DNA of 64,000 nucleotides, taken from the NCBI GenBank assembly GCA_963788655.1, contig CAWBHS010000026.1, forward strand, positions 1-64,000, read 5' to 3'. The notes under the pieces were generated by a model. The model saw only the letters and a list, made by a program, of their open reading frames with translations, did not search any database and was not told where the DNA came from. This document shows positions 484 through 52,865 of the stretch, piece after piece (within the stretch, counting starts at the first letter, position 1; each line of letters begins with the position of its first letter). The translations under genes were made by a program, and so were the position numbers. This DNA comes from an uncultured Verrucomicrobiae bacterium (GTDB lineage Bacteria; Verrucomicrobiota; Verrucomicrobiia; Limisphaerales; JAFGQR01).

Positions 484-2214
484 TTATTCCCCGTTGGGCC
501 GGGCCTTTTGTGCGACAGCCAGGATGGGGTCCAACTTGGCAGTGACTTCGGGGGCCAGCTTGTCTTTAGGCACCAGCCCGGCGAGGACGTGATAATCCGT
601 TTTTCGGAGCAGGTTGGGCAGGGCCAATTTTTTGAAAAATCGCTCGAATACAGGATCGAGGAATTCGTCGCTTGCCTTGATGTCGTCCGACCACGGGCTC
701 GGCTTGCCTAAGGTAGCGAGCGCGGCGGTCACTTCAGCGATGCATTCGCGCATGACTTGTTCCCGACGCGCGGCTTCGGCCCTTCCGAAAAGATCGTCCG
801 GCTGATCGTGACACGCGTAGGCGAGCAGGACGTCCTCCTGGCAGAGGTAGTTTTCGATCTCACGCCGCTGCCACATCATCTCGGTGAGGGGCGTGCCCGA
901 TTGCAGCGGCCTTTCGAGTCGGTCAAACAGCGCGACGCCGACAAGATCGGTGCGGGCTTCTTGCAAGGCAAAGAAATGTTCCCGGGCGCGGCTGGGCAGG
1001 TTCGTCGTGAGGTAATGAACGAAAGGCCGCTCCAGTTCCTGGGCAGCCGGGTGGTCCAGGATGCGGGCAAAGGCCCGCAGGATGGCCAAATCCGTGGAGC
1101 CTTCCAGATAGAGTACCCAGCCTTTCAGGTCCGCCTGGTAGTAGTGGTCAAATCCAATGTCCGTCAGCGCTTTGACGACCTGTTGTCCGCGATCGTCCAT
1201 GCGGTGGGGTCGCCCGACAAACGCAATGACAACGTCCCGGTTGGCGGCCTCATTGAGCACGACTTCCGAATGGCTGGCCGCGATGACCTGGGAGCCCTGC
1301 TGCGAGGCCACGTCCGTGAGGAGTTGGTAAATCTGGCGCTGGCGCAGGACTTCGAGGTGGGCGTCAGGCTCGTCCAGCAGGAGGACTGTTTTGGGATTGG
1401 CGTAGAGATGGGCCAGCAAGAGCAGCGTCTGCTGCAAGCCGCGCCCGGCGCAGGAAAGGTCCAAGAGCGTACCCTGAGCGTCTCGATAGGCCATGGTAAT
1501 CTCCGCCCTCTCCAGCAGCTTGGGCGGTTGGAGGTCCACGCCGAACAGAGCTTGGAGGTGGGCGCAAACCTCGGACCAACCGGCGGCGCTGCCGGGTTGA
1601 TTGTACAGTTGATGGCAGAGGTTGCGAAGCACCTGGGCGGTTTCACCTTGGCCAATGAGAAACCCGATTTCGCCGGGCTGCTTCAGGAACTCTCTGTCCG
1701 TCAATCCCGACATCGGTGGGAGAAAGGCGCATCGCGAGTCACCGGCCTCGGGAGGAACCGCCATGCGCTGAGGCTGCTTCACTTCGGTGAGTCGCAGAGG
1801 GCGGCAATAGAACGACTCTTCGTTGGCGTAGTCGAATTCCAATCCACAACTCCACGCCTTTCCGCCGTTTACACCGTCCACGATGATGTCGATGCGGACG
1901 TTTTGAGTCTGCGGCTTGCCATTGACTCGCCGCACATCACGCACATGAAGGTTCCGCCAAAGAAGGTTCGCCGTTGGCACCGGAATGGCGACAAGATCAC
2001 GGCGGTTGATGGTGACCCCGGGACGCTGGGCGGGGACGGACTTGTCTTTGTATTCCGTGTTCCACTTGCGCAGCCCAACATCCCATAACGCGAGCGCTTG
2101 GAGGGCTGTGGTCTTTCCCAAGTTGTTTGGGCCGATGAAGACCACGGATTGCCCGAGTTCAACGTCGGCATCGCCAAATCGCTTGAAATTCTTGATGCGT
2201 AATCGTGTTAGCAT
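484..2214 (-). CDS. ABC/AAA-type ATPase with C-terminal TOPRIM-like domain (OLD-family-like ATP-dependent nuclease)
   Basis: N-terminal LRIKNFKRF, Walker A GPNNLGKTT, signature-like SCAGRGLQQ, Walker B/D-loop LLLDEPDAHL, H-loop ASHS, and TOPRIM-like YLEGSTD. Confidence 0.85.
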   Translation of the reverse strand: MLTRLRIKNFKRFGDADVELGQSVVFIGPNNLGKTTALQALALWDVGLRKWNTEYKDKSVPAQRPGVTINRRDLVAIPVPTANLLWRNLHVRDVRRVNGKPQTQNVRIDIIVDGVNGGKAWSCGLEFDYANEESFYCRPLRLTEVKQPQRMAVPPEAGDSRCAFLPPMSGLTDREFLKQPGEIGFLIGQGETAQVLRNLCHQLYNQPGSAAGWSEVCAHLQALFGVDLQPPKLLERAEITMAYRDAQGTLLDLSCAGRGLQQTLLLLAHLYANPKTVLLLDEPDAHLEVLRQRQIYQLLTDVASQQGSQVIAASHSEVVLNEAANRDVVIAFVGRPHRMDDRGQQVVKALTDIGFDHYYQADLKGWVLYLEGSTDLAILRAFARILDHPAAQELERPFVHYLTTNLPSRAREHFFALQEARTDLVGVALFDRLERPLQSGTPLTEMMWQRREIENYLCQEDVLLAYACHDQPDDLFGRAEAARREQVMRECIAEVTAALATLGKPSPWSDDIKASDEFLDPVFERFFKKLALPNLLRKTDYHVLAGLVPKDKLAPEVTAKLDPILAVAQKARPNGE

Positions 2215-23159: not shown

Positions 23160-25644
23160 ATGAAACAAGTTGGTTATGTCGCCCTCAATACTCTGCTGCT
23201 TGCCTTGTCTTGTGCGGCTCAGCAAATCCCCATCAACTCTTCCATCGCGTACGACGCGAATGATCCCACCCACGCCATCGTGCTCACGTGGGAAGCGATT
23301 CCGACGAAGATACTACAACGTGTTGACGACGACCGCGCTGGGACAACAGCCCTGGACATCCCTTAATCCCAACCCGATCTACGCGTCCAACAACCTGGTG
23401 CGTTTCGCGGACACCAATGACCAGTCCGCGCGGTTCTACAAGGTGGTCAAACTGGACACGGACCCGCCGGAGGTCTGGCGGGCGGCGCCGGGGGACGGCG
23501 CGATTGCCGTGGGACGGCAAAGCCCGCTGAAGGTATATCTGCAGGACGAAACGGCGATTGATCCCACTTCGATTGCGTTGACGGTGGGCACCAACCCGCC
23601 GGCGACGCTGGCCGATGGACGACTGGCCTACGCGAATGGCATGCTCACCTACACTCCGGGCACCAATGAGTTCCTGGGCAACTACGCCGCGACCGTGAGT
23701 TGCGCCCTGGCCGTGTCCGATACTCTGGGTCAGCGCGGAACCAACGCGTGGTCCTTCGGGCTCGAACTGGAAACGGTTCTGGCGGACAACGTGGTGCTGA
23801 TTGGCAGTCCCCCGGGATTCGCCGCCAAAACCGCCGCCTTGGCCAGTTCCTCCGGGCTGACGCTGGTGTCCACCAATGGAGCGACCTTTGTCTTCAGCTA
23901 TACCGGCGCTTCTTCCGGGCTGACCAATGGCCAAGTCCTGGTGAGCACCGACCCGGCTCATGCCTACAAACGAAAGATCATTTCGCTGGCCGACGATCCG
24001 GGAAACCAGACCGTCACCGTGGTTACCGAACAGGCTTCCTTGGCCGAGTGTGTCCAGCAGGGCAGCATTCGCCTGACCGGAGATTTTGCCGACTTGACCG
24101 GTGGGGGCGCTGGATTCTCCTCGATTGGCGCCACCATCTCCTTGGATGGGACCGAGTTGTTCGACAACGGTACGATCCGGGTGGAAGTGGTTTCCGGGCA
24201 AATCAGCTTCACGCCCGATTTCACCGTTTCCGGTGAGTTCGACTCCGGGCGTCTGGTTTCCTTCGATTCCGAGATCTCCGGCACGGTGGGCTTGGACATG
24301 ACGCTGCGAGGGAGTTTCCAGGTGACCGGTGATTGGGACGGCACCAAACCCCTCATCACTCCCATCCGCAAGGTCAATGTTCTCGCTTGGATTGCGGTTA
24401 TCCCGGTTTGGACCGAAGCGGTGATGGAGTTTGATATTGGTTACGAAGCGCAGGCCGAAGCGTTTGGGGAGGCGACGGCGGGCTTTACGTCCTCGCGGAC
24501 AATGACTTTTGGCGCCCGGCTGCGCGATGGGAATTGGAGCATGTTCCGCGATGAGTCCTCGTCGTTTGTTCCTGTGCCGCCCTCGTGGTCGATCAATGGC
24601 GCGGCCAAGGTGGCGGTTTATGTGGAGCCGAAACTGACGGTGTATTTGGAGAGCCTGGCGGGGCTGTCGGCGAACTTGAAGCCGTATCTGGAGGCGGACG
24701 GCAAGGCATGTGTGGTGCCGGGGCAGGCGGGAGTGGACTTTTCGTTGTATGCGGGTTTGAGCAGCACGTTGGCGGTGGATGTCAGGGGTTGGGATGAGGA
24801 CTGGGGGACGTTGCCTTCGTGGGAACTGTTCAATTTGCGCAAGCAAATCTACCATAAGAACCTGACGACACCCACGGGGCCGCCACCAAATGTTCTGCCG
24901 GGCATGGTGTGGATTCCGTGCGGGAGATTTACCATGGGCAGCCCGGAGAGCGAGCCGGCGCGTTATTCCAACGAAACCCAGCATGAGGTGACGATCAGCC
25001 GGGGGTTTTGGATGGGGAAGTATGAGGTAACTCAGGCGGAGTACCAAGCGGTGATGGGGAGCAATCCGAGCTATTTCCAGGGAGCCAACCTGCCGGTGGA
25101 AACAGTCAGTTGGCATGATGCGGTGGCGTATTGTGCGGCGTTGACGGCGCGGGAGCAGGCGGCGGGGCGGTTGCCCGCAGGGTATGTGTATCGGTTACCG
25201 ACGGAGGCGCAGTGGGAGTATGCGTGCCGGGCCGGGACGACCACGCCGTTCCATTACGGGAACGCGTTGCGTTCGGGGATGGCGAACTTTGATGGCCGTT
25301 ACGAATATCCACCGTGCGGGAGTGACTACTATGGCTGCTACAACCCCGGCGGCACCTACCTGGGGCGAACGACTTCGGTGGGGAGCTATGCGCCGAACGC
25401 GTGGGGATTTTATGACATGCACGGGAATGTGTGGGAGTGGTGTGCGGACTGGTATGGGGCGTACCGATGCGGGGCCCGTGACGGATCCTGTGGGGCCTGC
25501 CACGGGCTCGCACCGCGTGGTCCGCGGCGGCTATTGGCACTCCCTCGCCAGGTACTGCCGGTCAGCGGGTCGCGGCCACGACTACCCGGACTACTGGTAC
25601 GGCAACTCGGGTTCCGGGTGGTGCTGGTCCCAGGTCAGCCATGA
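23160..25644 (+). CDS. DGR target protein: secreted multidomain protein with C-terminal FGE-sulfatase (CLec-fold) domain; frameshifts near 23310, 25464 and 25607
   Basis: Signal peptide MKQVGYVALNTLLLALSCAA; FTMGSP, GKYEVTQAEY, LPVETVSWHDA, RLPTEAQWEYACRAG, NAWGFYDMHGNVWEWC. The shifted frame gives RVVRGGYW...CRSA, and the gene ends GFRVVL. Confidence 0.9.
25502..25644 (+). repeat. DGR variable repeat (VR)
   Basis: acgggctcgcaccgcgtggtccgcggcggctattggcac...gggttccgggtggtgctggtccca aligns codon for codon with 27489-27631. Confidence 0.88.
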
Positions 25645-28883: not shown

Positions 28884-31800
28884 TCACAGCACTGCCAGCA
28901 ATTTCCTTATCTCATTCAACCGCGCTTTGGCGGTGGTTTTAGTCAGACGGGGGAACTTGCCGTGCAGCATGATGTAATCATTGTAGCGGGTCAGTTTGAG
29001 CTTGTCCTCCTGGGTTTCGATGGAACTGATGCCTTTGGCGCTGGCAATTAACTTCAGGGTGCTGACTTGCAATAGCAATTGCACCGGCTCGGGCAACGGA
29101 CCGAACCGGTCGCGCATTTCGCCTTTCAATTGTTCCAGCGATTCGTCGTCGGTGATTTCGGCCAGCTTGCGGTAGATCTCCAGCCGGTGTTGCGGGTCAG
29201 CAATGTAATTCAGCGGGATGAACGCGCCGGCTTTCTGGACGACTGGTGCTGATCGTGGCGACTTGTCGGAAGCAGGTTCGTCGGCCTCGCTGATATACGT
29301 TGCGGTTTCACGGGGCACGTTGATTTCAAGATCGGTATTGCGTTGGCCGCGACCTTTCTTTTGCTGCTTGCATTGGGTCGCCTGCGCTTCGGCGGCGGCG
29401 GCTTCACCGGCACTGGCGGCCAGGAAATCCAATCGCACCACCACTTCGACGCGCGGTTTGACCTTTTCGCCTTTAAGCGTCGCCACGCTTTGCTTGAGCA
29501 ACTGGCAGTAAAGCTCGAAACCCACGGCGGTGATGTGGCCGCTTTGCTCGGCGCCCAGCAGGTTGCCGGCGCCGCGGATTTCGAGGTCGCGCATGGCGAT
29601 TTTGAAGCCGCTGCCGAGCGTGGAGTATTGCTTGATGGCGCTGATGCGTTTGCGCACGTCGGTCAGCAGGCTGGCGTGGCGCGGCAGCAGCAGATAGGCG
29701 TAAGCCTGATGTTTGTAGCGGCCCACGCGGCCGCGCAATTGGTAAAGGTCGCTCAGGCCGAACCGGTCGGCGCGGTCGATGATGATGGTGTTGGCGTTCG
29801 GAATGTCGAGGCCGCTCTCGATGATGCGTCGTGGAAAGCAGCACGTCGGCTTCGCCGTTGACAAACTTGGCCATCACTTCCTCCAGGTCGTCGCTCGTGC
29901 ATCTGGCCGTGGCCGACGACAATGCGCGCCTGGGGCACCAGCGTCCGCCAGACGTGTGCGCCACAGTCATCGATCGTCGATCACGCGGTTGTGCAGGAAG
30001 AAGACCTGGCCGCCGCGGTTCAATTCGCGCTGGATGGCATCGCGGATGACGCGCTCGTCGTATTGCGACACGATGGTTTCCACCGGCAGCCGGTCATGCG
30101 GCGGCGTCTGGATGGTGCTCATGTCGCGGGCGCCGGTGAGCGCCAGGTAAAGCGTGCGCGGAATCGGCGTGGCGCTCAGCGTGAGCACATCCACCAGCTG
30201 GCGCAGCATCTTGAACTTCTCCTTGTGCAACACGCCGAACCGCTGTTCCTCGTCGATGACCACCAGGCCGAGGTCCTTGAACACGATGTCGCTTCTGCAC
30301 CAGGCGGTGCGTGCCGATGACGATGTCCACCGCGCCGGTCGCCAGATCACGCACGACGCGCTGCCTGGTTCCGGCGGGTGCGGAAGCGGGAGAGCAGTTC
30401 GATGCGGATCGGATAATCCGCCATGCGCTCGCGGAACGTGTTGAAATGCTGCTGCGCCAGCACGGTGGTCGGCACGAGCATGGCCACCTGTTTGCCGTCC
30501 ATCACCGCTTTGAACGCGGCGCGAATGGCGACTTCGGTTTTGCCGAAGCCCACGTCGCCGCAGATCAGACGGTCCATCGGCTTGGGCCGTTCCATGTCGG
30601 ACTTGGTTTCGACGATGGCGCGCATTTGGTCGGGCGTTTCCTCGTAGATGAACGCGCTTTCGAACTCGCGCTGCCAGGGCGTGTCCGCGGGAAAGGCGTG
30701 GCCGGCTGCGATTCGCGCGCGGCCTGGATGGACAGCAAGCTCAGCGGCGACATCCCGCACCGCTTTCTCCGCTTGTTCCTTGGCTTTGTTCCAGCGCGTG
30801 CCGCCGAGCGTGTTCAGCGGCGGACGCGCTTTGCCGGCGCCGACGTATTTGCTGACCAGATGGGCTTCGGTAACGGGCACGTAGAGGTTTGGGCGCCGGC
30901 TGCGTCGGAGTCGCGCGGCGCATATTCGATCACCAGGCATTCCTGGCCTGACTCCGGCAACGGACGCGGCGTGGCGCCTCCGGTCGCCGGCTTGTGCCGG
31001 TCGGCGGCGGCAGAAGCTTCAAGCCCAGGTAACGTCCGATGCCGTGCTGCACATGAACGACGTAATCGCCTTCTTCCAGATCCGTGAAATCAATGTCAAG
31101 CGCCGAGCGCGTCGCCTGGGCGTGCGGCGATTTCAGCCGGCGCGGTCGCTGCACTTTGTAGCGCCCGAAGATCTCCGCGTCGGTGACCACGACCAGTTTC
31201 GCCGAGTCGCTAAGAAATCCGCGGGTTAAGGCGCCCAGGTGCAACACAGGCGGAGCGCCTCGACCGCGGCCAAGGGATGCAGTCCTTTTTGCGTCAACGG
31301 CCGATGAAGCGTTTTCCGGGAGTGAGTTGCCTGTGTCGGTACTAGGAAGTCGAGGAGCTGAACCGGCATCACCCAACCCATATTCCTCCCAAATTTCATG
31401 GAACCGCTGACGTTCGCCGTCGTTGTTGCAAAAGACATGGACTTGGTAGCTCTGGCGCAGCCACCGGTGCAATTGGGCGAAAAACTCGCGGCGTTGTGCT
31501 TCGGCGATGGCTGGTTCCGGCGCGCGATCCACGATGGGCCGGAAGGCGTCGAGAGACGAGAAGGCGAGGTTGCCAAGCGCCGCATCCAACGGTCCCACGC
31601 TGGCTTCCGATGTATCCAATGGCGCAGCAGATGGCTCGCTGGCAGATGCCAATTCGTCGTCAGGTGGAAGTAGTGCTTCGCCTGCGAAACCAGCGACCAC
31701 GGATTCCTCCGCGGACAGTTCTAATTGCGTCATTCCCCGGTCGGCCAGTTCACTCCTGAAGTCTTCCCAATCGATATGAAACGAATCCTCCTCCGGCACC

Positions 31801-32786
31801 AGATCGGCGTAGCTGCCCGCGGTTTCAGCCAGTGCTTCCGGTTCGCACAACAGCCAGATCGCCGCGCGCGGCAAGTAATCCAGTAACGTGGCGAGCGCAG
31901 GGGGATGGTTACTTGTTGAGGGTTGATGGGACGATGCTGGTGGACCGGCGGTATCAGCTTTCAAGGCCAGTTCCTTTTTCAACACGCCCAGTTCCCCGGC
32001 AGGGGAAAGCAGAACGCTCGTGATGGGCTCCCGCGACATTTGGCTGATGGGATCAAAGAACCGCAGCGACTCGACTTCGTTGCCGAAGAATTCCAGCCGG
32101 ACCGGCCAGGGACTGGTGGGCGGAAAAATGTCCAGGATGCCACCGCGCAAGGCGATTTCGCCTTTGTGGTTAACCTGCGCTTCCGGCTCGTAGCCCAAGT
32201 CTTCCAGCCACTCGATCAAGTCGAGCGGATTGATTGGATCGCCGCGTTGCACGGTACGAATGCGCTGCCGCAATTGTTGCGGCGGGTAGGTGCGCTGGAG
32301 CAACGCGGTCACGCTGGCCACCACGATGGGTGACGCGGAAATGTCCGAGCCCGAGGTCGCAACAGTCGCGACCGACGACAAGGCAGCCAGAGTTTCCAGG
32401 CGCTCGCTAATGACGTCCACGTGCGGGAGTTTACCTTCGTGCGGCAGCACTTCCCAGGCGGGATAGAACAGGAGTTGTGAGCTCTGGTTTGCTGGCGGGG
32501 AATCAGCGGTGTTTCCATTTTGGCTCGCTCCATACTTCAGCCACGTGGTGATGTCCTGATGATGACTCTCCTGCGTCTTCAAGCCCTCGGCCACCACGAT
32601 GACCGGACGTTGGGGAAACAACCGATGCAAGAGCACCGCCAGGAAAGGTTGCGCACCCGCGCTGACGCCACCGCAGGGCAAAACACTCCCCTGCTCCAGT
32701 CGCTGTGCCATCGCCTGCACGGTGGGAGTTTGCGCTGCCGCGGCGAACAAATCGTTTGCCACCGTCCTGGATTTCCTGGACGCCAA
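28884..32786 (-). CDS. mfd: Transcription-repair coupling factor; multiple frameshifts
   Basis: [84 protein letters not shown]. Confidence 0.95.
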
Positions 32787-42127: not shown

Positions 42128-42637
42128 TCATTCATGGTTCATACGGCTGAGTGCCTCTTCGATGACCCAATCATTGCGGCCGTCAGGATGGCAATGGCAA
42201 TGCGCGGAGAAAAAGCCGCCCCGACAGCGCCAGAACAACGGCCAGATTTGTTCGCGATCGGTTTGCGGCAGCGTCAAGTCTTCCAATTCACTGGTCGGGA
42301 AAAAATGAAAATTACCCTCCCGATGCGGCGGCGGGAGCGTGTGCAGGCGTGGCTTGACTTCGAAGAGAAACATCAACCAGTGGGCCTGGCCTTCGTAGCC
42401 GTGTTCGCTGATGAGCCCGGTCAGGTGCAAATCGTTCGTGGCGAGCGAGAGGCCCAATTCCTCGTGGGCTTCCCGGCAGGCGCAAGCGTACGGCGACTCG
42501 CCGGTGTCGGTGTTCAATTTGCCGCCGCACGGACTCCAGAGTCCGCGGTTTGGTTCCTGGGCACGTTCCAGCAGCAGCACTTCGTCGCGCGCGTTGAAAC
42601 AATAAAGCAGCGTCGATATTTTGTAGGGCAACGCCAT
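42128..42637 (-). CDS. NUDIX hydrolase
   Basis: Nudix box GGKLNTDTGESPYACACREAHEELGL. Confidence 0.9.
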   Translation of the reverse strand: MALPYKISTLLYCFNARDEVLLLERAQEPNRGLWSPCGGKLNTDTGESPYACACREAHEELGLSLATNDLHLTGLISEHGYEGQAHWLMFLFEVKPRLHTLPPPHREGNFHFFPTSELEDLTLPQTDREQIWPLFWRCRGGFFSAHCHCHPDGRNDWVIEEALSRMNHE

Positions 42638-42808
42638 GCGGGGAGTGAAGCAGGAGCACCGGCCGAATTCAATGCGAGCTTGGCGTTTGCGTTTTTCCAG
42701 ACGTTGGGTTGCTTGCGGCGACGAAAGCAGGCAGATTTCCTTCAGTCGCAAGCCACGTTCGATCAAGCGGCTGATGATGAACAACAAATCGCAAGAGAAA
42801 GTGACTGT

Positions 42809-43081
42809 ATGGCCCAGGCAATGATGGATCCCGCGGAGGTGCGGCGTTTCGCCGAAGAACTGAAGCGGTTCAACATTGATCTCCAAAACCGGATGGGATT
42901 GTTGCAGGCGCGGTTTGCGTCGCTGGGTGAATCCTGGCAGGACCAGGAGCACACCAAGTTTTCCGATGAGTTCAAACAAACCATGAAGGCGCTGAAGAAA
43001 TTCGTCGAGATTTCCAACCAGCACGCGCCTTACCTCTTGCGCAAGGCTCAGCGCATCGAAGAATATCTGAACCAACGTTAA
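42809..43081 (+). CDS. WXG100/ESAT-6-like protein (central WQD)
   Basis: 90-aa helical protein MAQAMMDPAEVRRFAEELKRF...LGESWQDQEHTKFSDEF...RIEEYLNQR. Confidence 0.85.
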   Translation: MAQAMMDPAEVRRFAEELKRFNIDLQNRMGLLQARFASLGESWQDQEHTKFSDEFKQTMKALKKFVEISNQHAPYLLRKAQRIEEYLNQR

Positions 43082-43085
43082 CCGG

Positions 43086-43691
43086 ATGGCCGACAAAGCG
43101 CATGTTACCTCGGTGGAAGCGCTGCAAGCGTTCCGGACCAGCTTGGTCCTGTACCTCAGCAAGGCGCGGCCCACCCTGGACGAAGTCGGCGGCGACGTCG
43201 TCCGCACCCGTTTGTGGCTGGAGAATGACCAGCGGAGTTATTGGGAGGGACAAGTGCGCCGGCGTTCGCGAGTTCTGGAACAGGCGCAAGCAGCGCTGTT
43301 CGGATCGCGGTTGTCCACGTTTCGGGAAGCCTCGACTGCCGAGCAGGCGGCGGTGAACAAGGCACGGCGGGCGTTGGCCGAGGCGGAGGAGAAACTGCGG
43401 CTGGTGAAACGCTGGTACCGCGAGTTCGAGAACCGGGTGGAACCGCTCGCCAAAGAGTTGGGCAAATTGCAGTCGTTTCTGACCGATCAAATGCCCAAAG
43501 CGCTGGCCTATCTGGCCCAGGCCGTGAAAACCCTCGAGGACTACGCGCAACTGGCGCCCAGTCCCCCGGCGGAAGCCTCCGGATCGTCCCCCAGTGCGGC
43601 CAGTACGGATAATTCCGCATCCTCCGACGCCCCGGCCGCTGCGGCCAATCCCACTGGCGGCGAAACTGCTTCCCGGAAAGGCAGCCCGTGA
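43086..43691 (+). CDS. Helical coiled-coil protein in the WXG100 operon
   Basis: All-alpha composition with a low-complexity tail; starts 4 nt after the WXG100 gene and overlaps the next gene. Confidence 0.75.
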   Translation: MADKAHVTSVEALQAFRTSLVLYLSKARPTLDEVGGDVVRTRLWLENDQRSYWEGQVRRRSRVLEQAQAALFGSRLSTFREASTAEQAAVNKARRALAEAEEKLRLVKRWYREFENRVEPLAKELGKLQSFLTDQMPKALAYLAQAVKTLEDYAQLAPSPPAEASGSSPSAASTDNSASSDAPAAAANPTGGETASRKGSP

Positions 43692-43900
43692 ACATCAAGG
43701 CAAACGGCAACAAGCTGACCGCCATCACGAAAGAGATTTCGAACCAGTGGCAGTTGACGCTCGACCAATGGCAGGATGCCAAAAGCCGGGAGTTTGAGCG
43801 CAAGTATTTGGAAGAACTCTTCGCCGCGGTGGATTCGGCGGTGACGGTCATTGGGCAACTGGACAAACTTGTCACAAAAATCAGGCAGGACTGTGAGTAG
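43688..43900 (+). CDS. Second small WXG100-like protein (WQD)
   Basis: 70 aa, ISNQWQLTLDQWQDAKSREFERKYL; overlaps the genes on both sides. Confidence 0.7.
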   Translation: MNIKANGNKLTAITKEISNQWQLTLDQWQDAKSREFERKYLEELFAAVDSAVTVIGQLDKLVTKIRQDCE

Positions 43901-46900
43901 TCATTCGGGTGTCGCCAAAACCATCGAACTGGTGAACCGCCTCAAAGAGACGGTGCGCGAGTTCACCGTCAACGAGGAAAAACTCACGCACCAGCTTAAC
44001 GCCGGCATCGGTGAAGCGCGACGTCGCCGGGACGCGGCGACTGAAGAACTGGAGAGCGAATCTGCGCTGGCGCTGGATCAGGCGGAGGCCGCCTTTCAGA
44101 CGGCCCGGCAAGCGCGGGAGTCAAAATATGCGCAGCGCCACGCACGCATTCAGAAAGGTCGCCGCACCAGCCAAAAGCAGCAACTCCAGCAAATCGACCG
44201 CACCGAGGGAGGCCGCAAACACAAGCTCCAAACCGAAACGCTGCAAGCGCAACGGGACCACGATAACGGGCTGGCGCAAACGGAAACAACCTCGAAGAAT
44301 TCAAGCGCAGCCTGGCTGGCCGAGCAGGAACTGCTGCAATCCATTGCAATCGCGAGCATGGTCTGACTTTTCGCGCTTCTAGGAAATTTCGCGACTTGAT
44401 TTCCCCGACGGAACCGCAGTGGAAAGCGCACCGGTGGCGGACGACAAGGATGAATATCAATTGTTCACGTGAACTGCGCCAGCGACTCGATGCTGCCCAG
44501 GCCGACTTGGGCCGTTTCCGGAAATTGCTGGTGCCCCATCTTCTCAAATATCCCAGTCTGTGGTTGGTGATCCTGTTTTGCCTGATCCCTTTGGTTCCGC
44601 TACTGCAATACTTCAACATCACTTCCTTTACCTACGTTCATGCGGGCGCAGCAATTGGGGGATGTCTCGTGCTGGGCTTCCTGTTGCACTACTTGGGCCG
44701 GCGGCAGGGCCAGCCGCTCGCCAAAAAGTTTGCCGCCGAAATTGCCTCGGCCGCTCGTTTGCACGATGTCTGCCTGGAAACGGCCGAGACGCGGCGCACC
44801 CAGGAAATTGCCCGGATCGAAAACGAGTTCGAAAGCCGCAATCAGACGATCGCTCAGGAATGGCAGCAGGCCATCGAGACCGCCGCGCAGCTTCGCGAAA
44901 CCGCGCCGCGAACGCTCGAGGAAAAGGCGGCGCGTGTTTCCGCCCGGAACGAAAAACAACATCGCCTAAAGACTGAACAACTCGAACGCCACCACACCGC
45001 GGAAGTCCAGCGTTTGAAAGGCGAAGCCGAAACTCGGCAGCGGAAATTGGTGAGCGTTTGCGCAGCGTTGGAGACGAAGTACAACTCTGATTCCAGACGA
45101 ACCTGCAGGCTTTGGAAGCCGAATGGAAACAGCAAATCCAGCCGATTTACAAAGTCATCCAGACCGCCAACGCGGATGCGGAAAAGCTGTTTCCGCCGTG
45201 GGACGCGGAACGGTGGGATCGCTGGACGGCTCCGAAGGAATTCGCGCACGCCGCTCAGTTCGCGCACCTGGACGTGGACGTGGTCAATCTCGCCGGCAGC
45301 CCGCCCAAAGATGAGCGACTCGCGCTTCCGGGCCCCAGCCAGTTTTCGTTGCCATTACTGCTGACGTATCCCCACGAAGGATCGATTCTCTTCGAGACGG
45401 TGGCGGCCGGGCGGGAGGAAATGATCGGCGCGCTGAACAATCTCATTTTGCGGTTGCTCTCGGTGGCGCCGCCGGGACGGTTGAGCTTCACGCTGATTGA
45501 TCCCGTGGGACTGGGGCAAAGCTTTTCCGGCGTGATGCACCTGGCGGATTACGCCGAGCACTTGATCAACAGCCGCATCTGGACCCAGACCGGGCAGATC
45601 GAGCAGCGCCTGGCCAACCTGAATGAGCACATGGAGAAGGTCATTCAGATGTATCTCCGGAACGAGTACGCCACGATCACGGAATACAATGAACAAGCCG
45701 GCAACATCGCGGAGAAATATCACTTTCTGGCGGTCGCCGATTTCCCCTCGAACTTCACCGAGGTTGCCGCCAAACGGCTTTTGAGCATTGCCACCAGCGG
45801 CGCACGTTGTGGAGTTTATACGCTGATTCATTGGGACCGCCGGCAGCCGGTGCCGCCGGAGTTTGTTCCGGAGGAACTTCGCAAGAGCAGCGTTTGCATC
45901 AGTCTCAAAGGCAACACCCTGGTTTTGACCGGCCAACCGATGGCCGGCACGCGCGTACTGCTCGAAGCCCCGCCATCGCCGGAACGCGCGACCCAATTCA
46001 TCCAAAAAGTTGGCTTGAGTAGTCGCGACTCGAATCGCATCGAAGTGCCGTTTGCCCACGTGGCACCAGCCGGAGACGAAGTGTGGAGCCTGGACTCCGC
46101 GGACGAACTGCGCGTGCCGATTGGCCGCACCGGCGCCACGAAGTTGCAGTATCTTGCCATCGGCAAGGACACCCGCCAGCACGGGTTGATCGCGGGCAAG
46201 ACCGGTTCCGGCAAATCCACGTTGTTTCACGTGATCATCACCAACCTGGCGTTGTGGTGCAGTCCGGAGCAGGTCGAGTTTTACCTGGTGGATTTCAAGA
46301 AAGGCGTGGAATTCAAATGCTACGCGGCCCGACATCTGCCACATGCGCGCGTCGTCGCGATCGAGAGCGACCGGGAGTTCGGCTTGAGCGTGCTCCAGCG
46401 CGTGGACGCCGAGTTGAAACGGCGCGGCGACTTGTTTCGCAAGCTCGGCGTGCAGAACGTTCCCGGCTACAAAAAGGCAGGCGGCACCGAAGCCATGCCG
46501 CGCTCGCTGCTGATCATTGACGAGTTCCAGGAATTTTTCGTTGAAGACGATCCCATCTCCCAGACGGCATCGGTGCTTCTGGATCGAATTGTCCGGCAAG
46601 GACGCGCGTTTGGCATTCACGTATTGCTGGGTTCCCAAACACTTGGGGGCGCGTACACCGTAGCGCGCACGACCCTCGGCCAAATGGTCATTCGTATCGC
46701 GCTCCAGTGCAACGAAGCCGATGCTTACTTGATCATGGACGACAACAATCCGGCTCCCCGGCTGCTAACCCGTCCAGGCGAGGGCATTTACAACGACCGG
46801 GCCGGGAACCTCGAAGGCAACAGCCCATTCCAGACGGTGTGGCTGCCGGACGCGGTGCGCGACGCGTCACTCGAGCAGGTCCGCCAGGTGGCCGACCAAA

Positions 46901-47793
46901 GCGGGACCGCTTATCCAGGCCCAATCGTGTTTGAAGGAAACGCGCCCGCGGACATTCGGGAAAACGCCGCGCTGGGCGCGTTGCTGAAGGCCGAATCGAT
47001 CCAGGTTCCACCTGCAGCGCAAATGTGGCTGGGTGCGCCCAATTCCATCAAAGGTCCGACGGAAGCGGTGTTCCATCGACAAAGCGGCAATCACCTTTTG
47101 ATGGTCGGCCAACGCGACGAAGCCATCCTGGCCATTTTCTCAGTTGGCCTGGTTTCGTTGGCGACGCAATATCCGATCGGCCGGGCGCGGTTCTATTTGC
47201 TCGATGGCACGCCGCCGGGTTCGCCGCAACGCGCCTTCCTTGAGCGGGTCAGGCAAGCGATCCCGCATGACGCGGTGAGCGTGAAACCAAACGAATTGGC
47301 GGACGTGCTGAGCGGATTGGCCGAGGAAGTGAAACGGCATACCGAAGACGTTTCGGCCGGCGAAGCACCGGCAACGTTCTTGTTGATTCAAGGGCTTCAG
47401 AAATTCGGCAAGCTGCGTTACGAAGAGGATTTTGGGTTTTCGACGGACGATTCCGCAACGACGGCCAAGCCGGGCGCATTGCTCAACACACTGATTGATG
47501 AAGGCCCCAGCGCGGGCGTCCACGTGATTGCTTCGTGTGACACCTACAACAACGTCAGCCGGTTCCTCAGCCGGAAGGCCCTGAGCGAGTTTGAAATGCG
47601 GGTGCTATTCCAGATGAGCCCGAACGATTCAGCCAGCCTGATCGACAGTCCGAAAGCCAGCACGTTGGGGTTGCACCGGGCGATTTTCTACAACGAGCAA
47701 CAGGGTTACATGGAAACGTTCCGTCCGTATGCCCTGCCGCCCGGTGACTGGATTGAGCACGTAGGTGGCGAACTCGGGCGGTTGCTGAAATAG
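43893..47793 (+). CDS. FtsK/SpoIIIE-domain membrane ATPase (EccC/EssC-like); frameshifts between about 44290 and 45100
   Basis: Coiled coil, two TM helices, HGLIAGKTGSGKS, YLVDFKKGVEF, LLIIDEFQE, RQGRAFGIHVLLGSQ. Confidence 0.88.
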
Positions 47794-47807
47794 CCGTTCT
47801 CCCTACC

Positions 47808-48833
47808 CTACCGTTTCCACCAGGAGCGGTGCTGCGGTCTGGGTTCCGGGGCGAAGGACTGCTGTTGATTGATCTGTTGCACCAGTAACTGGCTGCGCGC
47901 CGCGGTCAGGGCCATGATGAAATCATCGTACGTGGGGTAGCGATCATCCGGGTTCTTGGCCATCGCGGCGCAAATCGCGTCACTGGTTGGCTGGGTGATG
48001 TTGACATTGATGTGATTGGGCGGCGTCAGGGGGGCGTGGACATGGTCGGCCACCACTTGCTCAATCGTTTCCGCCTCGAACGGCACGTGGCCGGTCATCG
48101 CATGGTAGAGCGTGCCGCCCAGGCTGTACATGTCCGAATGAAAATCTTCGCCACGACGCTGGATCTTTTCGGGCGCCACGTAATAAGGCGTTCCCCATAT
48201 CGAAGAGCCGTATTCCTCTTCTTCCTCCGCTTTGCGGGCCAGGCCAAAGTCCACCAGTTTCGGTTCGCCTTCGGCATTATAGAGGATGTTGAGGGGTTTG
48301 ATGTCGCGATGGAGCAAGTCCTTTTTTAGTGCCGTTTGCAGCGCGGAGGCGACTTTGATGCCGACGTCCAACACGTCGAGTTCGGGCACGGCCCCTTCGG
48401 TTTCAATGCGATTGTCGAGGCTACCATGGTCGGCCAGTTCCATCACCAGGAAAGGTTGCCCGTCAAAATCGTCGAACGCGTAAATATGGATGATATTGGT
48501 GTGATTCAGGGCGGCCCCGGCGCGGGCTTCGCGATAGAAACTATCCATCACTTGCGGATCTTCAGTCAGTTCGCGTTTGAGGAATTTGACTGCCACCATT
48601 CGTTCGAGCGTCAGATCGAACGCCCGGTACACTGTGCCCATGCCGCCGGACGCGATCACTTCCCGTAATTCGAACTGGCGGATGCGCACCGGAACAATGA
48701 CCGGGTGGCCGCACTGGTTGCAGGGAGTTGACGCCATCGGTTCACCGCCGCTTGGCAGCCAAAGCTGTTTCTTGCAGCTTCCACAAATAGATAAACGCAA
48801 CGGGGCGCTGGGTTGACCGGTGGCCTCGGACAC
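47808..48833 (-). CDS. Hanks-type Ser/Thr protein kinase with N-terminal zinc ribbon
   Basis: CGSC...CNQC; GGMGTVY, VAVK, HRDIKPLN, DFGLA, GTPYYVAPE, SDMYSLG. Confidence 0.93.
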   Translation of the reverse strand: MSEATGQPSAPLRLSICGSCKKQLWLPSGGEPMASTPCNQCGHPVIVPVRIRQFELREVIASGGMGTVYRAFDLTLERMVAVKFLKRELTEDPQVMDSFYREARAGAALNHTNIIHIYAFDDFDGQPFLVMELADHGSLDNRIETEGAVPELDVLDVGIKVASALQTALKKDLLHRDIKPLNILYNAEGEPKLVDFGLARKAEEEEEYGSSIWGTPYYVAPEKIQRRGEDFHSDMYSLGGTLYHAMTGHVPFEAETIEQVVADHVHAPLTPPNHINVNITQPTSDAICAAMAKNPDDRYPTYDDFIMALTAARSQLLVQQINQQQSFAPEPRPQHRSWWKR

Positions 48834-51516: not shown

Positions 51517-52865
51517 ATGCGGCGATTTTACAACATTTTATTTACACTGTCCTTTCTGCTCAGTTCGCCCTATTACTTTCTCCGGCTGCGTCGGAGGGGC
51601 AATTGGCGGGCGGATTTTTCCCAGCGGTTTGGACGTTACAGCTCCAAAGTCAAGCAAGCCGTCTCCAATCGGCACGTGCTGTGGATCCACGCCGTCAGCG
51701 TTGGGGAGGTCAATATCTGCACGCAGCTCGTCAAAGCGCTGGAGCCCCGGCTGCCCAATTTGAAGATCGTGGTTTCCACCACCACCACGACGGGTATGGG
51801 CGAATTGCAAAAGAAATTTCCTTCCCATATCCAAAAAGTCTATTACCCAATTGACCGCCGGGAGTGACGTCAACCGCGCCCTGATGACGATCCATCCGCA
51901 GATTATTGTGCTGGTGGAAGCGGAAATCTGGCCCAATTTTTTATGGCGTTCTCAGGCGCTACGCATTCCGTTGTTCTTGGTCAACGCCCGGTTGTCCGAA
52001 AAGTCCTACCGTGGCTACAAGCGGTTTGGCTTTTTGTTTCGGCAGTTGTTCGCCGCGTTTACCGGGGTTGGGTGCCAAAATGAAACTGACGCCCAGCGGC
52101 TGCGCGAGTTGGGTTGCCGGCCGGAGAGCATCTGCGTGGTCGGCAACATGAAGTACGACTCGGCCAAACTTGAAGAGCGCCGAGTAGTTGATGTGCCCGG
52201 GTTGCTACGCCAATTGGGGGTGCCGGACGGCGCGCGCCTGCTCATTGGCGGCAGCACCCATGCCGGAGAGGAAGCCATTCTCGGGGAAATCTACCAGCGG
52301 TTGCGAAAGCGGTTTCCGGATTTGTTTCTGATTGTGGCACCCCGTCATTTCGAACGCGGCAAGGAAGCCGGTCGGGATCTGAGCGCGCAGGGCATCAAGT
52401 TCGCTTACCGCAGCGAAATGAGCGTGAGTTCCCGCTACGAACCCAACTCCATCGAATGCCTGTTGTTGAATACGACCGGGGAATTGAAGTACTTCTACGA
52501 ACATGCCGCGGCCATCTTTGTGGGCAAGAGCCTCGTCGCCGACGGGGGCCAGAATCCGATCGAGCCGGGCGCGTTGGGCAAAGCCATGGTCTTTGGCCCC
52601 AACATGCAGAACTTCGAGGCCATCGCCCGGAGTTTTGTCGCACAGGCGCGCCGCGCTCCAAGTGCAGAACGCGGCTGAGTTGGAAACCGCGCTGGACCAC
52701 ATTCTGGGTGATGCCCAACTGGCCGCGGAATTGGGCCGCAACGCGGTGCAGGTAGTCAAAGAAAACTCGGGCGCCATCGAGCGCACCGTAGAGATGATCG
52801 TGGAGGCGTTGAAAGACAGTCCGATTTTTGTCGCCGGCAAACGCTTTCGCGCTCGGCAGGGTTAA
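51517..52865 (+). CDS. waaA: 3-deoxy-D-manno-octulosonic acid (Kdo) transferase; frameshifts near 51862 and 52645
   Basis: WIHAVSVGE, EAEIWPN, VNARLS, GNMKYD, GSTHAGEE, APRHFER, GGQNPIEP, FGPNMQNF. Confidence 0.93.

Follow-up and report, generated by a model that had tools for sequence, protein, structure and literature searches.

A minimal type VII-like gene cassette of the solo-WXG and three-module ATPase class in Limisphaerales

A class of loci in which a solo WXG gene accompanies a three-module YueA-like ATPase was described by Zhang et al. (2012, Biol Direct 7:18; PMC3482391), and verrucomicrobia are named there in footnote 6 of Table 1. In the passages of that paper drawn on here, the ATPase is given three HerA/FtsK modules of which the middle one alone is active, and the systems are called 'mobile versions of T7SS', that is, of type VII secretion systems (T7SS). 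The other close precedent is HP0062 of Helicobacter pylori (PDB 3FX7, 2GTS), for which the relevant passages of PMC3397514 report a WRD motif and, citing Pallen 2002, clustering with the gene of a protein containing an FtsK/SpoIIIE domain; the protein forms a helical hairpin dimer according to the same passages. In its part on such loci, a 2023 review (PMC10765036) treats Gram-negative pairs of WXG100 and FtsK genes as unconfirmed as secretion systems. In a 2024 survey covering T7SS variants (PMC11217815) a term search found no mention of diderm phyla, and a literature search returned no paper dedicated to WXG100 proteins in Verrucomicrobia or in Planctomycetes. Loci of this type bear on whether type VII-like machines function in bacteria that have a classical outer membrane. 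The present analysis concerns four plus-strand genes, p90, p201, p70 and an ATPase gene, at positions 42809-47793 of the first 64,000 nucleotides (nt) of contig CAWBHS010000026.1 (GenBank assembly GCA_963788655.1), a stretch referred to below as the window, from an uncultured soil verrucomicrobium of the order Limisphaerales. By its gene content the locus is a minimal cassette of type VII-like character, belonging to the class that combines a solo WXG protein with a three-module YueA/EssC-like ATPase.

The cassette has in common with the class of Zhang et al. a WXG gene beside a three-module ATPase with an active middle module, an architecture that was derived independently here. Three FtsK-like modules are present of which the middle one, D1, alone is canonical, p90 lies upstream of the ATPase gene in every locus, and the setting is neither Firmicute nor Actinobacterial. 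The footnote, for its part, does not mention p201, p70, the W-x-D motif, the coiled coil and two transmembrane helices of the ATPase or the fixed gene order. Whereas the systems were called mobile by Zhang et al., variable flanks were the only such sign here and no mobility genes were seen. HP0062 resembles p90 in its similar size, in carrying W-R-D instead of W-x-G at the bend of a hairpin, in the lack of a signal peptide, in its FtsK/SpoIIIE gene and in its Gram-negative host; it differs in coming from another phylum, the H. pylori locus being compared by its published description only. The novelty implied in a preliminary description of the locus, made from the sequence alone, was therefore overstated, as both the pairing of W-x-D with FtsK/SpoIIIE (PMC3397514) and the three-module class (PMC3482391) were already in print in the passages cited. 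What may be added, modestly, is p201 and p70, the presence of W-x-D in both short hairpins and a fixed Limisphaerales operon, the comparison being with the cited passages of Zhang et al. The cassette proves to be a fixed unit of four genes, and it introduces no system of a new kind. The identification given in the preliminary description, a minimal type VII-like system of WXG100-like proteins and an FtsK ATPase, holds on the strength of the p90 profile match, the predicted hairpin of p70 and the ATPase matches.

Comparison with the two characterized branches of T7SS was supported by searches for their parts in the same genome, which is 86% complete, with positive controls in Corynebacterium glutamicum or Bacillus subtilis for EccD, EssB, EsaA, YukD and EssA. 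The T7SSb of Bacillota shares with the cassette a WXG100 hairpin and a membrane FtsK-family ATPase, B. subtilis YukB matching the ATPase with an E-value of 5e-24 and EsxB and EsxA matching p90. It differs in its further parts, EsaA, EssA, EssB and YukD, which were not found in the genome: the models for EssB, EsaA, EsaB/YukD and EssA (TIGR03926, TIGR03929, PF08817, TIGR03927) gave no match there while the controls in B. subtilis were positive. The ATPase also departs from EssC in having no FHA domain, in carrying a coiled coil of about 200 amino acids (aa) before the transmembrane helices and in its modules, of which there are three with a single active site, in place of a domain of unknown function (DUF) and three nucleotide-binding domains. 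With T7SSa/ESX the cassette shares a cargo type, the helical hairpin, and the EccC of Thermomonospora curvata and the EccC5 of the Mycobacterium tuberculosis complex are the top solved matches of its ATPase. On the side of differences, the best match to EccB in the genome reached 18.7 bits against a cut-off of 154, EccD gave no match with a positive control, and the EccCa score of the ATPase was 117 bits as against 509. The search for EccE was silent in the genome and in the controls alike. The earlier statement that no EccB/D/E, MycP or EssA/B genes are recognisable thus stands for EccB, as judged by the cut-off, and for EccD, EssA and EssB, while for EccE the control was silent and MycP was not searched for.

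Composition of the cassette

The four genes had been described beforehand as tightly coupled, which is borne out by their spacing. p90 (42809-43081, 90 aa) and p201 (43086-43691, 201 aa) are separated by a 4-nt gap, the GTG start of p70 (43688-43900, 70 aa) overlaps the end of p201 by 4 nt, and the ATPase gene (43893-47793), in which the reading frame changes, begins at 43893 with a GTG that overlaps the end of p70 by 8 nt. Scans of positions 42400-48000 for promoters and terminators stayed at chance level, with one promoter-like site (1.0 expected) and 11 terminator-like sites (8.4 expected).

The p90 product is a WXG100-family protein resembling HP0062, with W43-Q-D45 at its predicted turn. 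Comparison with the Pfam profile PF06013, one of the checks proposed in the preliminary description, placed it above the cut-off (39.6 against 27.3 bits), and p90 was the single PF06013 gene in the 86% complete genome (38.6 bits in the genome search). The score against the NCBIfam model TIGR03930 (WXG100_ESAT6) was 30.9 bits and hence below the cut-off of 44.85. The best solved relative of the p90 profile was HP0062 (3fx7), matched over the full length with an E-value of 6.3e-10, and further matches in the PDB included EsxB of Bacillus anthracis (1e-6) and EsxA of Staphylococcus aureus (0.03). Identity to 19 orthologues, drawn from across the families of an order, was 64-81% with a mean column identity of 82%, and W43 and D45 were invariant in all 20 aligned sequences. 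The initial view of p90 as a helical protein with a central W-Q-D is upheld by these two residues, by the PF06013 score and by the full-length alignment to the hairpin HP0062. Kyte-Doolittle scans found hydrophobic segments in none of 20 p90, 20 p70 and 19 p201 sequences.

The p70 product is WXG100-like by fold and not by profile. AlphaFold2 predicted two helices, at residues 3-27 and 31-69, with a predicted local distance difference test score (pLDDT) of 89.6, and the loop between them, residues 28-30, is exactly the invariant W-x-D: W28 and D30, here flanking a Q, were unchanged in 20 of 20 sequences. The hairpin and its W28/D30 agree with the 70-aa helical protein with central W-Q-D that had been proposed. 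A C-terminal D-C-E is nearly invariant as well. Foldseek placed WXG100 proteins at the top ranks (EsxB, EsxEF, T. curvata EsxA/B, CFP-10/ESAT-6 and a Streptococcus agalactiae homodimer) with template modelling scores of 0.70-0.82, at E-values of about 1-3 that are non-significant for so small a fold. Searching the PDB with the p70 profile gave nothing meaningful. Alignment of p70 with p90 by hhalign brought the two W-x-D motifs together with an E-value of 0.12, and p201 aligned with p90 at an E-value of 0.0085 and a probability of 4.7%; both are too weak to claim kinship. Prediction of a complex of p90 and p70 scored 0.08 against a mark of 0.32, a result that weighs neither way.

For p201, AlphaFold2 predicted (mean pLDDT 81.1) a long antiparallel hairpin of two helices of about 75 residues each, at residues 2-76 and 80-156, followed by a disordered tail rich in Pro, Ala and Ser with pLDDT below 50. 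Foldseek returned generic coiled coils only, at E-values of 0.02 or above, in keeping with the coiled-coil protein of 201 aa named in the preliminary description. Neither p70 nor p201 matched a family in Pfam, NCBIfam or PADLOC.

The fourth gene encodes an EccC/EssC-like membrane ATPase of the FtsK family. Its C-terminal 900 codons matched PF01580 (FtsK_SpoIIIE) with 115 bits, and its ranking against the PDB was headed by T. curvata EccC (1.6e-32), EccC5 (3e-27) and B. subtilis YukB (5e-24), far above FtsK (8.5e-9). Together with two hydrophobic segments these matches sustain the membrane FtsK/SpoIIIE ATPase that had been recognised earlier. The best NCBIfam matches were EccCa and EssC, both below cut-off. 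An alignment of 16 orthologues revealed a poorly conserved coiled coil at residues 1 to about 205, the hydrophobic segments at about 205-275, a second coiled coil and three modules, D0, D1 and D2. In the window the two hydrophobic, transmembrane segments with a short loop between them lie at 44525-44698 by Kyte-Doolittle scan; at residues of about 205-288, at least one such segment was present in 16 of 16 orthologues and two in most.

Three FtsK-like modules were thus distinguished, and G-K-[ST] is retained in the middle one only. D0 (45304-45873) is without a Walker A motif and was recognised through PF01580 (match at 45430-45720; 27.1 bits against a cut-off of 24), its hhalign comparison with D1 being non-significant (E-value 0.07) and its profile finding nothing meaningful in the PDB. 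D1 (46099-46893) is the sole module with canonical Walker motifs, namely Walker A at 46195-46221 and the Walker B D-E-F from 46519. Across the 16 orthologues its Walker A, G-K-T-G-S-G-K-S-T, is invariant and its mean column identity 87%. D2 (47014-47763) is clearly homologous to D1 by hhalign (probability 96.6%, E-value 5e-10, 210 columns) and carries a degenerate V-G-Q-R-x-E at the P-loop position, G-K-[ST] being absent from it in 16 of 16 orthologues.

Conservation among relatives

Strong ATPase orthologues were detected in 22 of 40 relatives searched, all belonging to the same taxonomic order and nearly all to other families; three more gave partial or distant matches and the rest canonical FtsK only. 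The preliminary description had proposed a neighbourhood survey and had counted a four-gene order that is not conserved as grounds against its own proposal. The order p90-p201-p70-ATPase, with the overlapping stops and starts, was found to be identical in 19 of 19 loci fetched with their flanks at the level of the order, the p201 of one locus (L029) being missed by tblastn but visible in translation.

A search with the p90 profile, each species being represented by a single genome, gave at least 584 genomes with a relative of p90, and the best 80 of these matches were almost all labelled Verrucomicrobiota, Limisphaerales or Pedosphaera. These 80 further loci were read for gene order. p201 followed p90 in all 80, p70 came next in 78 with the other two cut by the contig end, and the ATPase gene came next wherever the contig continued. 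The four-gene order is conserved far beyond chance. Profile matches to D0 were obtained from 2666 representatives of 50%-identity clusters among 1.84 billion proteins, the full-length proteins found being about 1290-1340 aa long with D0 at residues of about 470-660. Judged from such matches, the cassette is widespread in the Limisphaerales/Pedosphaera group of Verrucomicrobiota, and the two counts (at least 584 genomes with p90, 2666 D0 cluster representatives) show it to be very common in soil and freshwater members of the phylum. Clusters of look-alikes of p201 and of the ATPase were commonest in Planctomycetota and Verrucomicrobiota and serve as leads only. When the phylum was sampled evenly with 301 genomes, a p70 relative was present in 8 only. 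The seven of these besides the genome analysed here, which are more distant, kept the order of the small-gene trio in every case, and the ATPase gene came next in the four whose contig covers it.

Transfer was assessed by comparing ATPase and Mfd identities over the 40 relatives, and for either gene the genome of the same genus was no closer than those of other families. Several loci with the full cassette and p90 76-81% identical (among them L072, L090, L093, L097, L104 and L055) bear titles of unrelated taxa (Bifidobacterium, Chitinophaga, Gammaproteobacteria, Acidoferrum); mislabelled bins rather than transfer are the most likely explanation.

Export and alternative functions

The cassette is predicted to export, a reading towards which our analysis leans only slightly. 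The ATPase would be anchored in the inner membrane by its two helices, with the N-terminal coiled coil and the three modules in the cytoplasm, and would form a ring as EccC/EssC do. ATP would be hydrolysed by the middle module D1, D0 may couple to the membrane part and D2 would be the likely receiver of cargo. The hairpins p90, p70 and p201, which are without signal peptides, would form bundles recognised by the ATPase and pushed over the inner membrane into the periplasm, whether as cargo, as adaptors or as both.

Several observations weigh against the identification or against export. The literal W-x-G is absent from p90 and p70, which have W-Q-D instead, and p70 and p201 have no WXG100 profile match. 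The ATPase stays below the NCBIfam cut-offs for EccCa (117.4 of 509 bits), EccCb (85.3 of 347) and EssC (93 of 778). The cassette has no linked membrane partner, whether of the outer membrane or of another kind. In two genomes of one distant genus the trio and a 1290-aa ATPase lie on different contigs (G329, loci L120 and L123; G209, loci L119 and L124). Finally, the mean column identity of p90 (82%) compares with 42-61% identity for the N-terminal part of Mfd, and p90 is so unusually conserved that it fits a cytoplasmic component with a structural or regulatory role at least as well as a secreted protein.

This conservation bears directly on a non-secretory machine, in which the membrane ATPase would do other work, for instance remodel or move nucleic acid or a substrate in the cytoplasm or the membrane, and the hairpins would act as regulators, stators or adaptors. 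Such a function would suit the column identities of p90 and D1 (82% and 87%), which exceed those of the housekeeping Mfd, as well as the small proteins, in which no toxin or enzyme domain was found with Pfam, NCBIfam or PADLOC, and the failure to find further T7SS membrane parts in the genome. It would also suit the PADLOC models of FtsK/HerA-type defence ATPases that match D1 (SspH 85 bits, mad8 78 bits). The ATPase is nevertheless closer to secretion ATPases than to DNA translocases (EccC 1.6e-32 against FtsK 8.5e-9), the genome has a separate canonical ftsK, as does each of the relatives searched, and in the portions of the reviews cited T7SS cargo and core parts are the only roles known for WXG100 proteins. 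On this evidence we consider a non-secretory role unlikely, though a serious competitor. A defence-system reading was considered separately and is unsupported: the PADLOC matches are generic to FtsK/HerA and confined to D1, with none in the small proteins.

Export might alternatively serve antagonism. LXG toxins come with small helical partners, a layout resembling one long hairpin and two short ones. In a T7SSb-like system for toxin delivery, p201 or unlinked LXG-like proteins would be the toxins and the small hairpins their targeting partners. The phrase 'mobile versions of T7SS' stands, in the passage cited, in a paper on polymorphic toxins (PMC3482391), which speaks for this option. Against it, p201 ends in a low-complexity disordered tail without a toxin domain, no immunity-like gene is linked and the flanks vary, the genome has a single PF06013 match, and the high conservation of the small proteins is not what polymorphic toxins show. 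Toxin delivery accordingly appears very improbable.

If the cassette does export, it might even be a complete and self-sufficient translocon, in which a ring of the two transmembrane helices of the ATPase would be the channel and the three-protein bundle would pass to the periplasm of PVC diderms with no partners of the EccB/D/E or EssA/B type. We regard this extension as doubtful, if worth entertaining. Should it be true, it would be the simplest working type VII secretion, possibly near the ancestral state. Having a single membrane protein, the cassette offers an appealing minimal model in which to study the movement of folded helical bundles by an EccC-type ATPase. By eye, no YxxxD/E motif was evident in the small proteins.

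Frame changes and flanking genes

The ATPase gene of the window is not open in one frame. Frame 0 is used from 43893 to about 44287, frame 2 takes over at about 44290, and frame 1 follows at about 45091 and is then open for 900 aa. In 18 of the 19 fetched loci, by comparison, the orthologue runs through 1274-1363 aa in one frame without interruption, the exceptions noted among these loci being one TAA in L013 and an end at the contig end in L018. The size of about 1300 aa given in the preliminary description therefore fits the orthologues and not the open reading frame (ORF) of the window, which is spread over three frames; the ATPase had been treated as unbroken and the frame breaks were overlooked.

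The breaks could mean a decaying pseudogene, in which the ATPase truly carries at least five frameshifts and the cassette is dead in this genome, and they are indeed there in the given sequence, at about 44287-44366 and at 45083-45094. The first cluster (44287-44366) consists of four single-base differences from a near-identical soil-metagenome contig of 151 nt (44259-44411), which has one base more behind 44287 and one base fewer at 44320, 44342 and 44366. When these four indels were applied, the frame from 43893 was open for 489 codons as against 157, and aligned with the orthologues in one piece. The second change, from frame 2 to frame 1, was located at 45083-45094 by frame-by-frame alignment to five orthologues. 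Among sequencing runs no RNA run with the locus was found, and only two soil-metagenome DNA runs contained small shares of it (0.08 and 0.06). They covered 13 of 30 and 7 of 30 bins; both were read-free at 42700-43917 and 44788-45309. Read depth over the second break was consequently 0 in both runs, which counts against the assembly-error explanation at that point and leaves room for decay.

Assembly errors, not gene decay, are nonetheless the most likely cause of the breaks in the ATPase. Assembly indels are preferred because the near-identical contig, without the four indels that fall inside 80 nt, removes the first break, and because the final 900 codons form an open frame with 55-74% identity to orthologues. 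Errors are further favoured because this assembly also has breaks in the core housekeeping genes waaA, mfd and ftsK, and the three small genes of the cassette are intact. A pseudogene is thus an improbable explanation, and frame breaks seem to be general in this assembly.

The three housekeeping genes are broken as follows. waaA (51517-52865, +), encoding the Kdo transferase, is split over three frames with positions 3-78 and 82-178 of PF04413 in different ORFs, probably by an assembly indel. mfd (30933-32786, -) is open for 624 aa, as against 1090-1384 aa in those matches of relatives that are not cut by a contig end, and the half encoding its C-terminus must be located upstream of 30933, on the minus strand but in different frames. 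The canonical ftsK (G000:C22:176595-177296) is in three pieces, with one Pfam domain running over frames of 569, 75 and 569 aa. In two other metagenome-assembled genomes (L055 and L077) the ATPase orthologue is likewise spread over two frames, while it occupies one frame in the other covering loci.

The location of waaA confirms the earlier remark that it lies nearby, at 4 kb, and with a Kdo transferase gene in the window of a verrucomicrobium the host fits the diderm with lipopolysaccharide that had been supposed. A functional linkage of the cassette to its neighbours (genes for a NUDIX protein, a tadA-like deaminase, a Ser/Thr kinase and a transporter, waaA, and a glycosidase gene) was rejected, as any one of them recurs in just 0-2 of 99 loci. 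Since the flanks are unshared, the cassette stands on its own, and waaA is no more than a housekeeping gene in its vicinity.

The Ser/Thr protein kinase gene (47808-48833, -) lies 14 nt downstream of the ATPase gene and is convergent with it. A protein kinase also follows the small-gene trio in G329 and G209, in G329 directly and on the same strand (L120:1619-2680, +), and among 99 other loci just two (L013 and L106) have a homologous kinase close to the cassette. A link of the kinase to the type VII-like system is possible but weakly supported. In G329 an open frame that exceeds 1780 aa lies ahead of the ATPase gene. Elsewhere in the window, the N-terminus of a 576-aa ORF at 487-2214 (-) shows a weak match to MAD3, a defence ATPase of MADS (43 bits against a cut-off of 420), and an 824-aa ORF at 23170-25641 (+) has a C-terminal domain resembling PvdO/GldK, of the formylglycine-generating-enzyme type.

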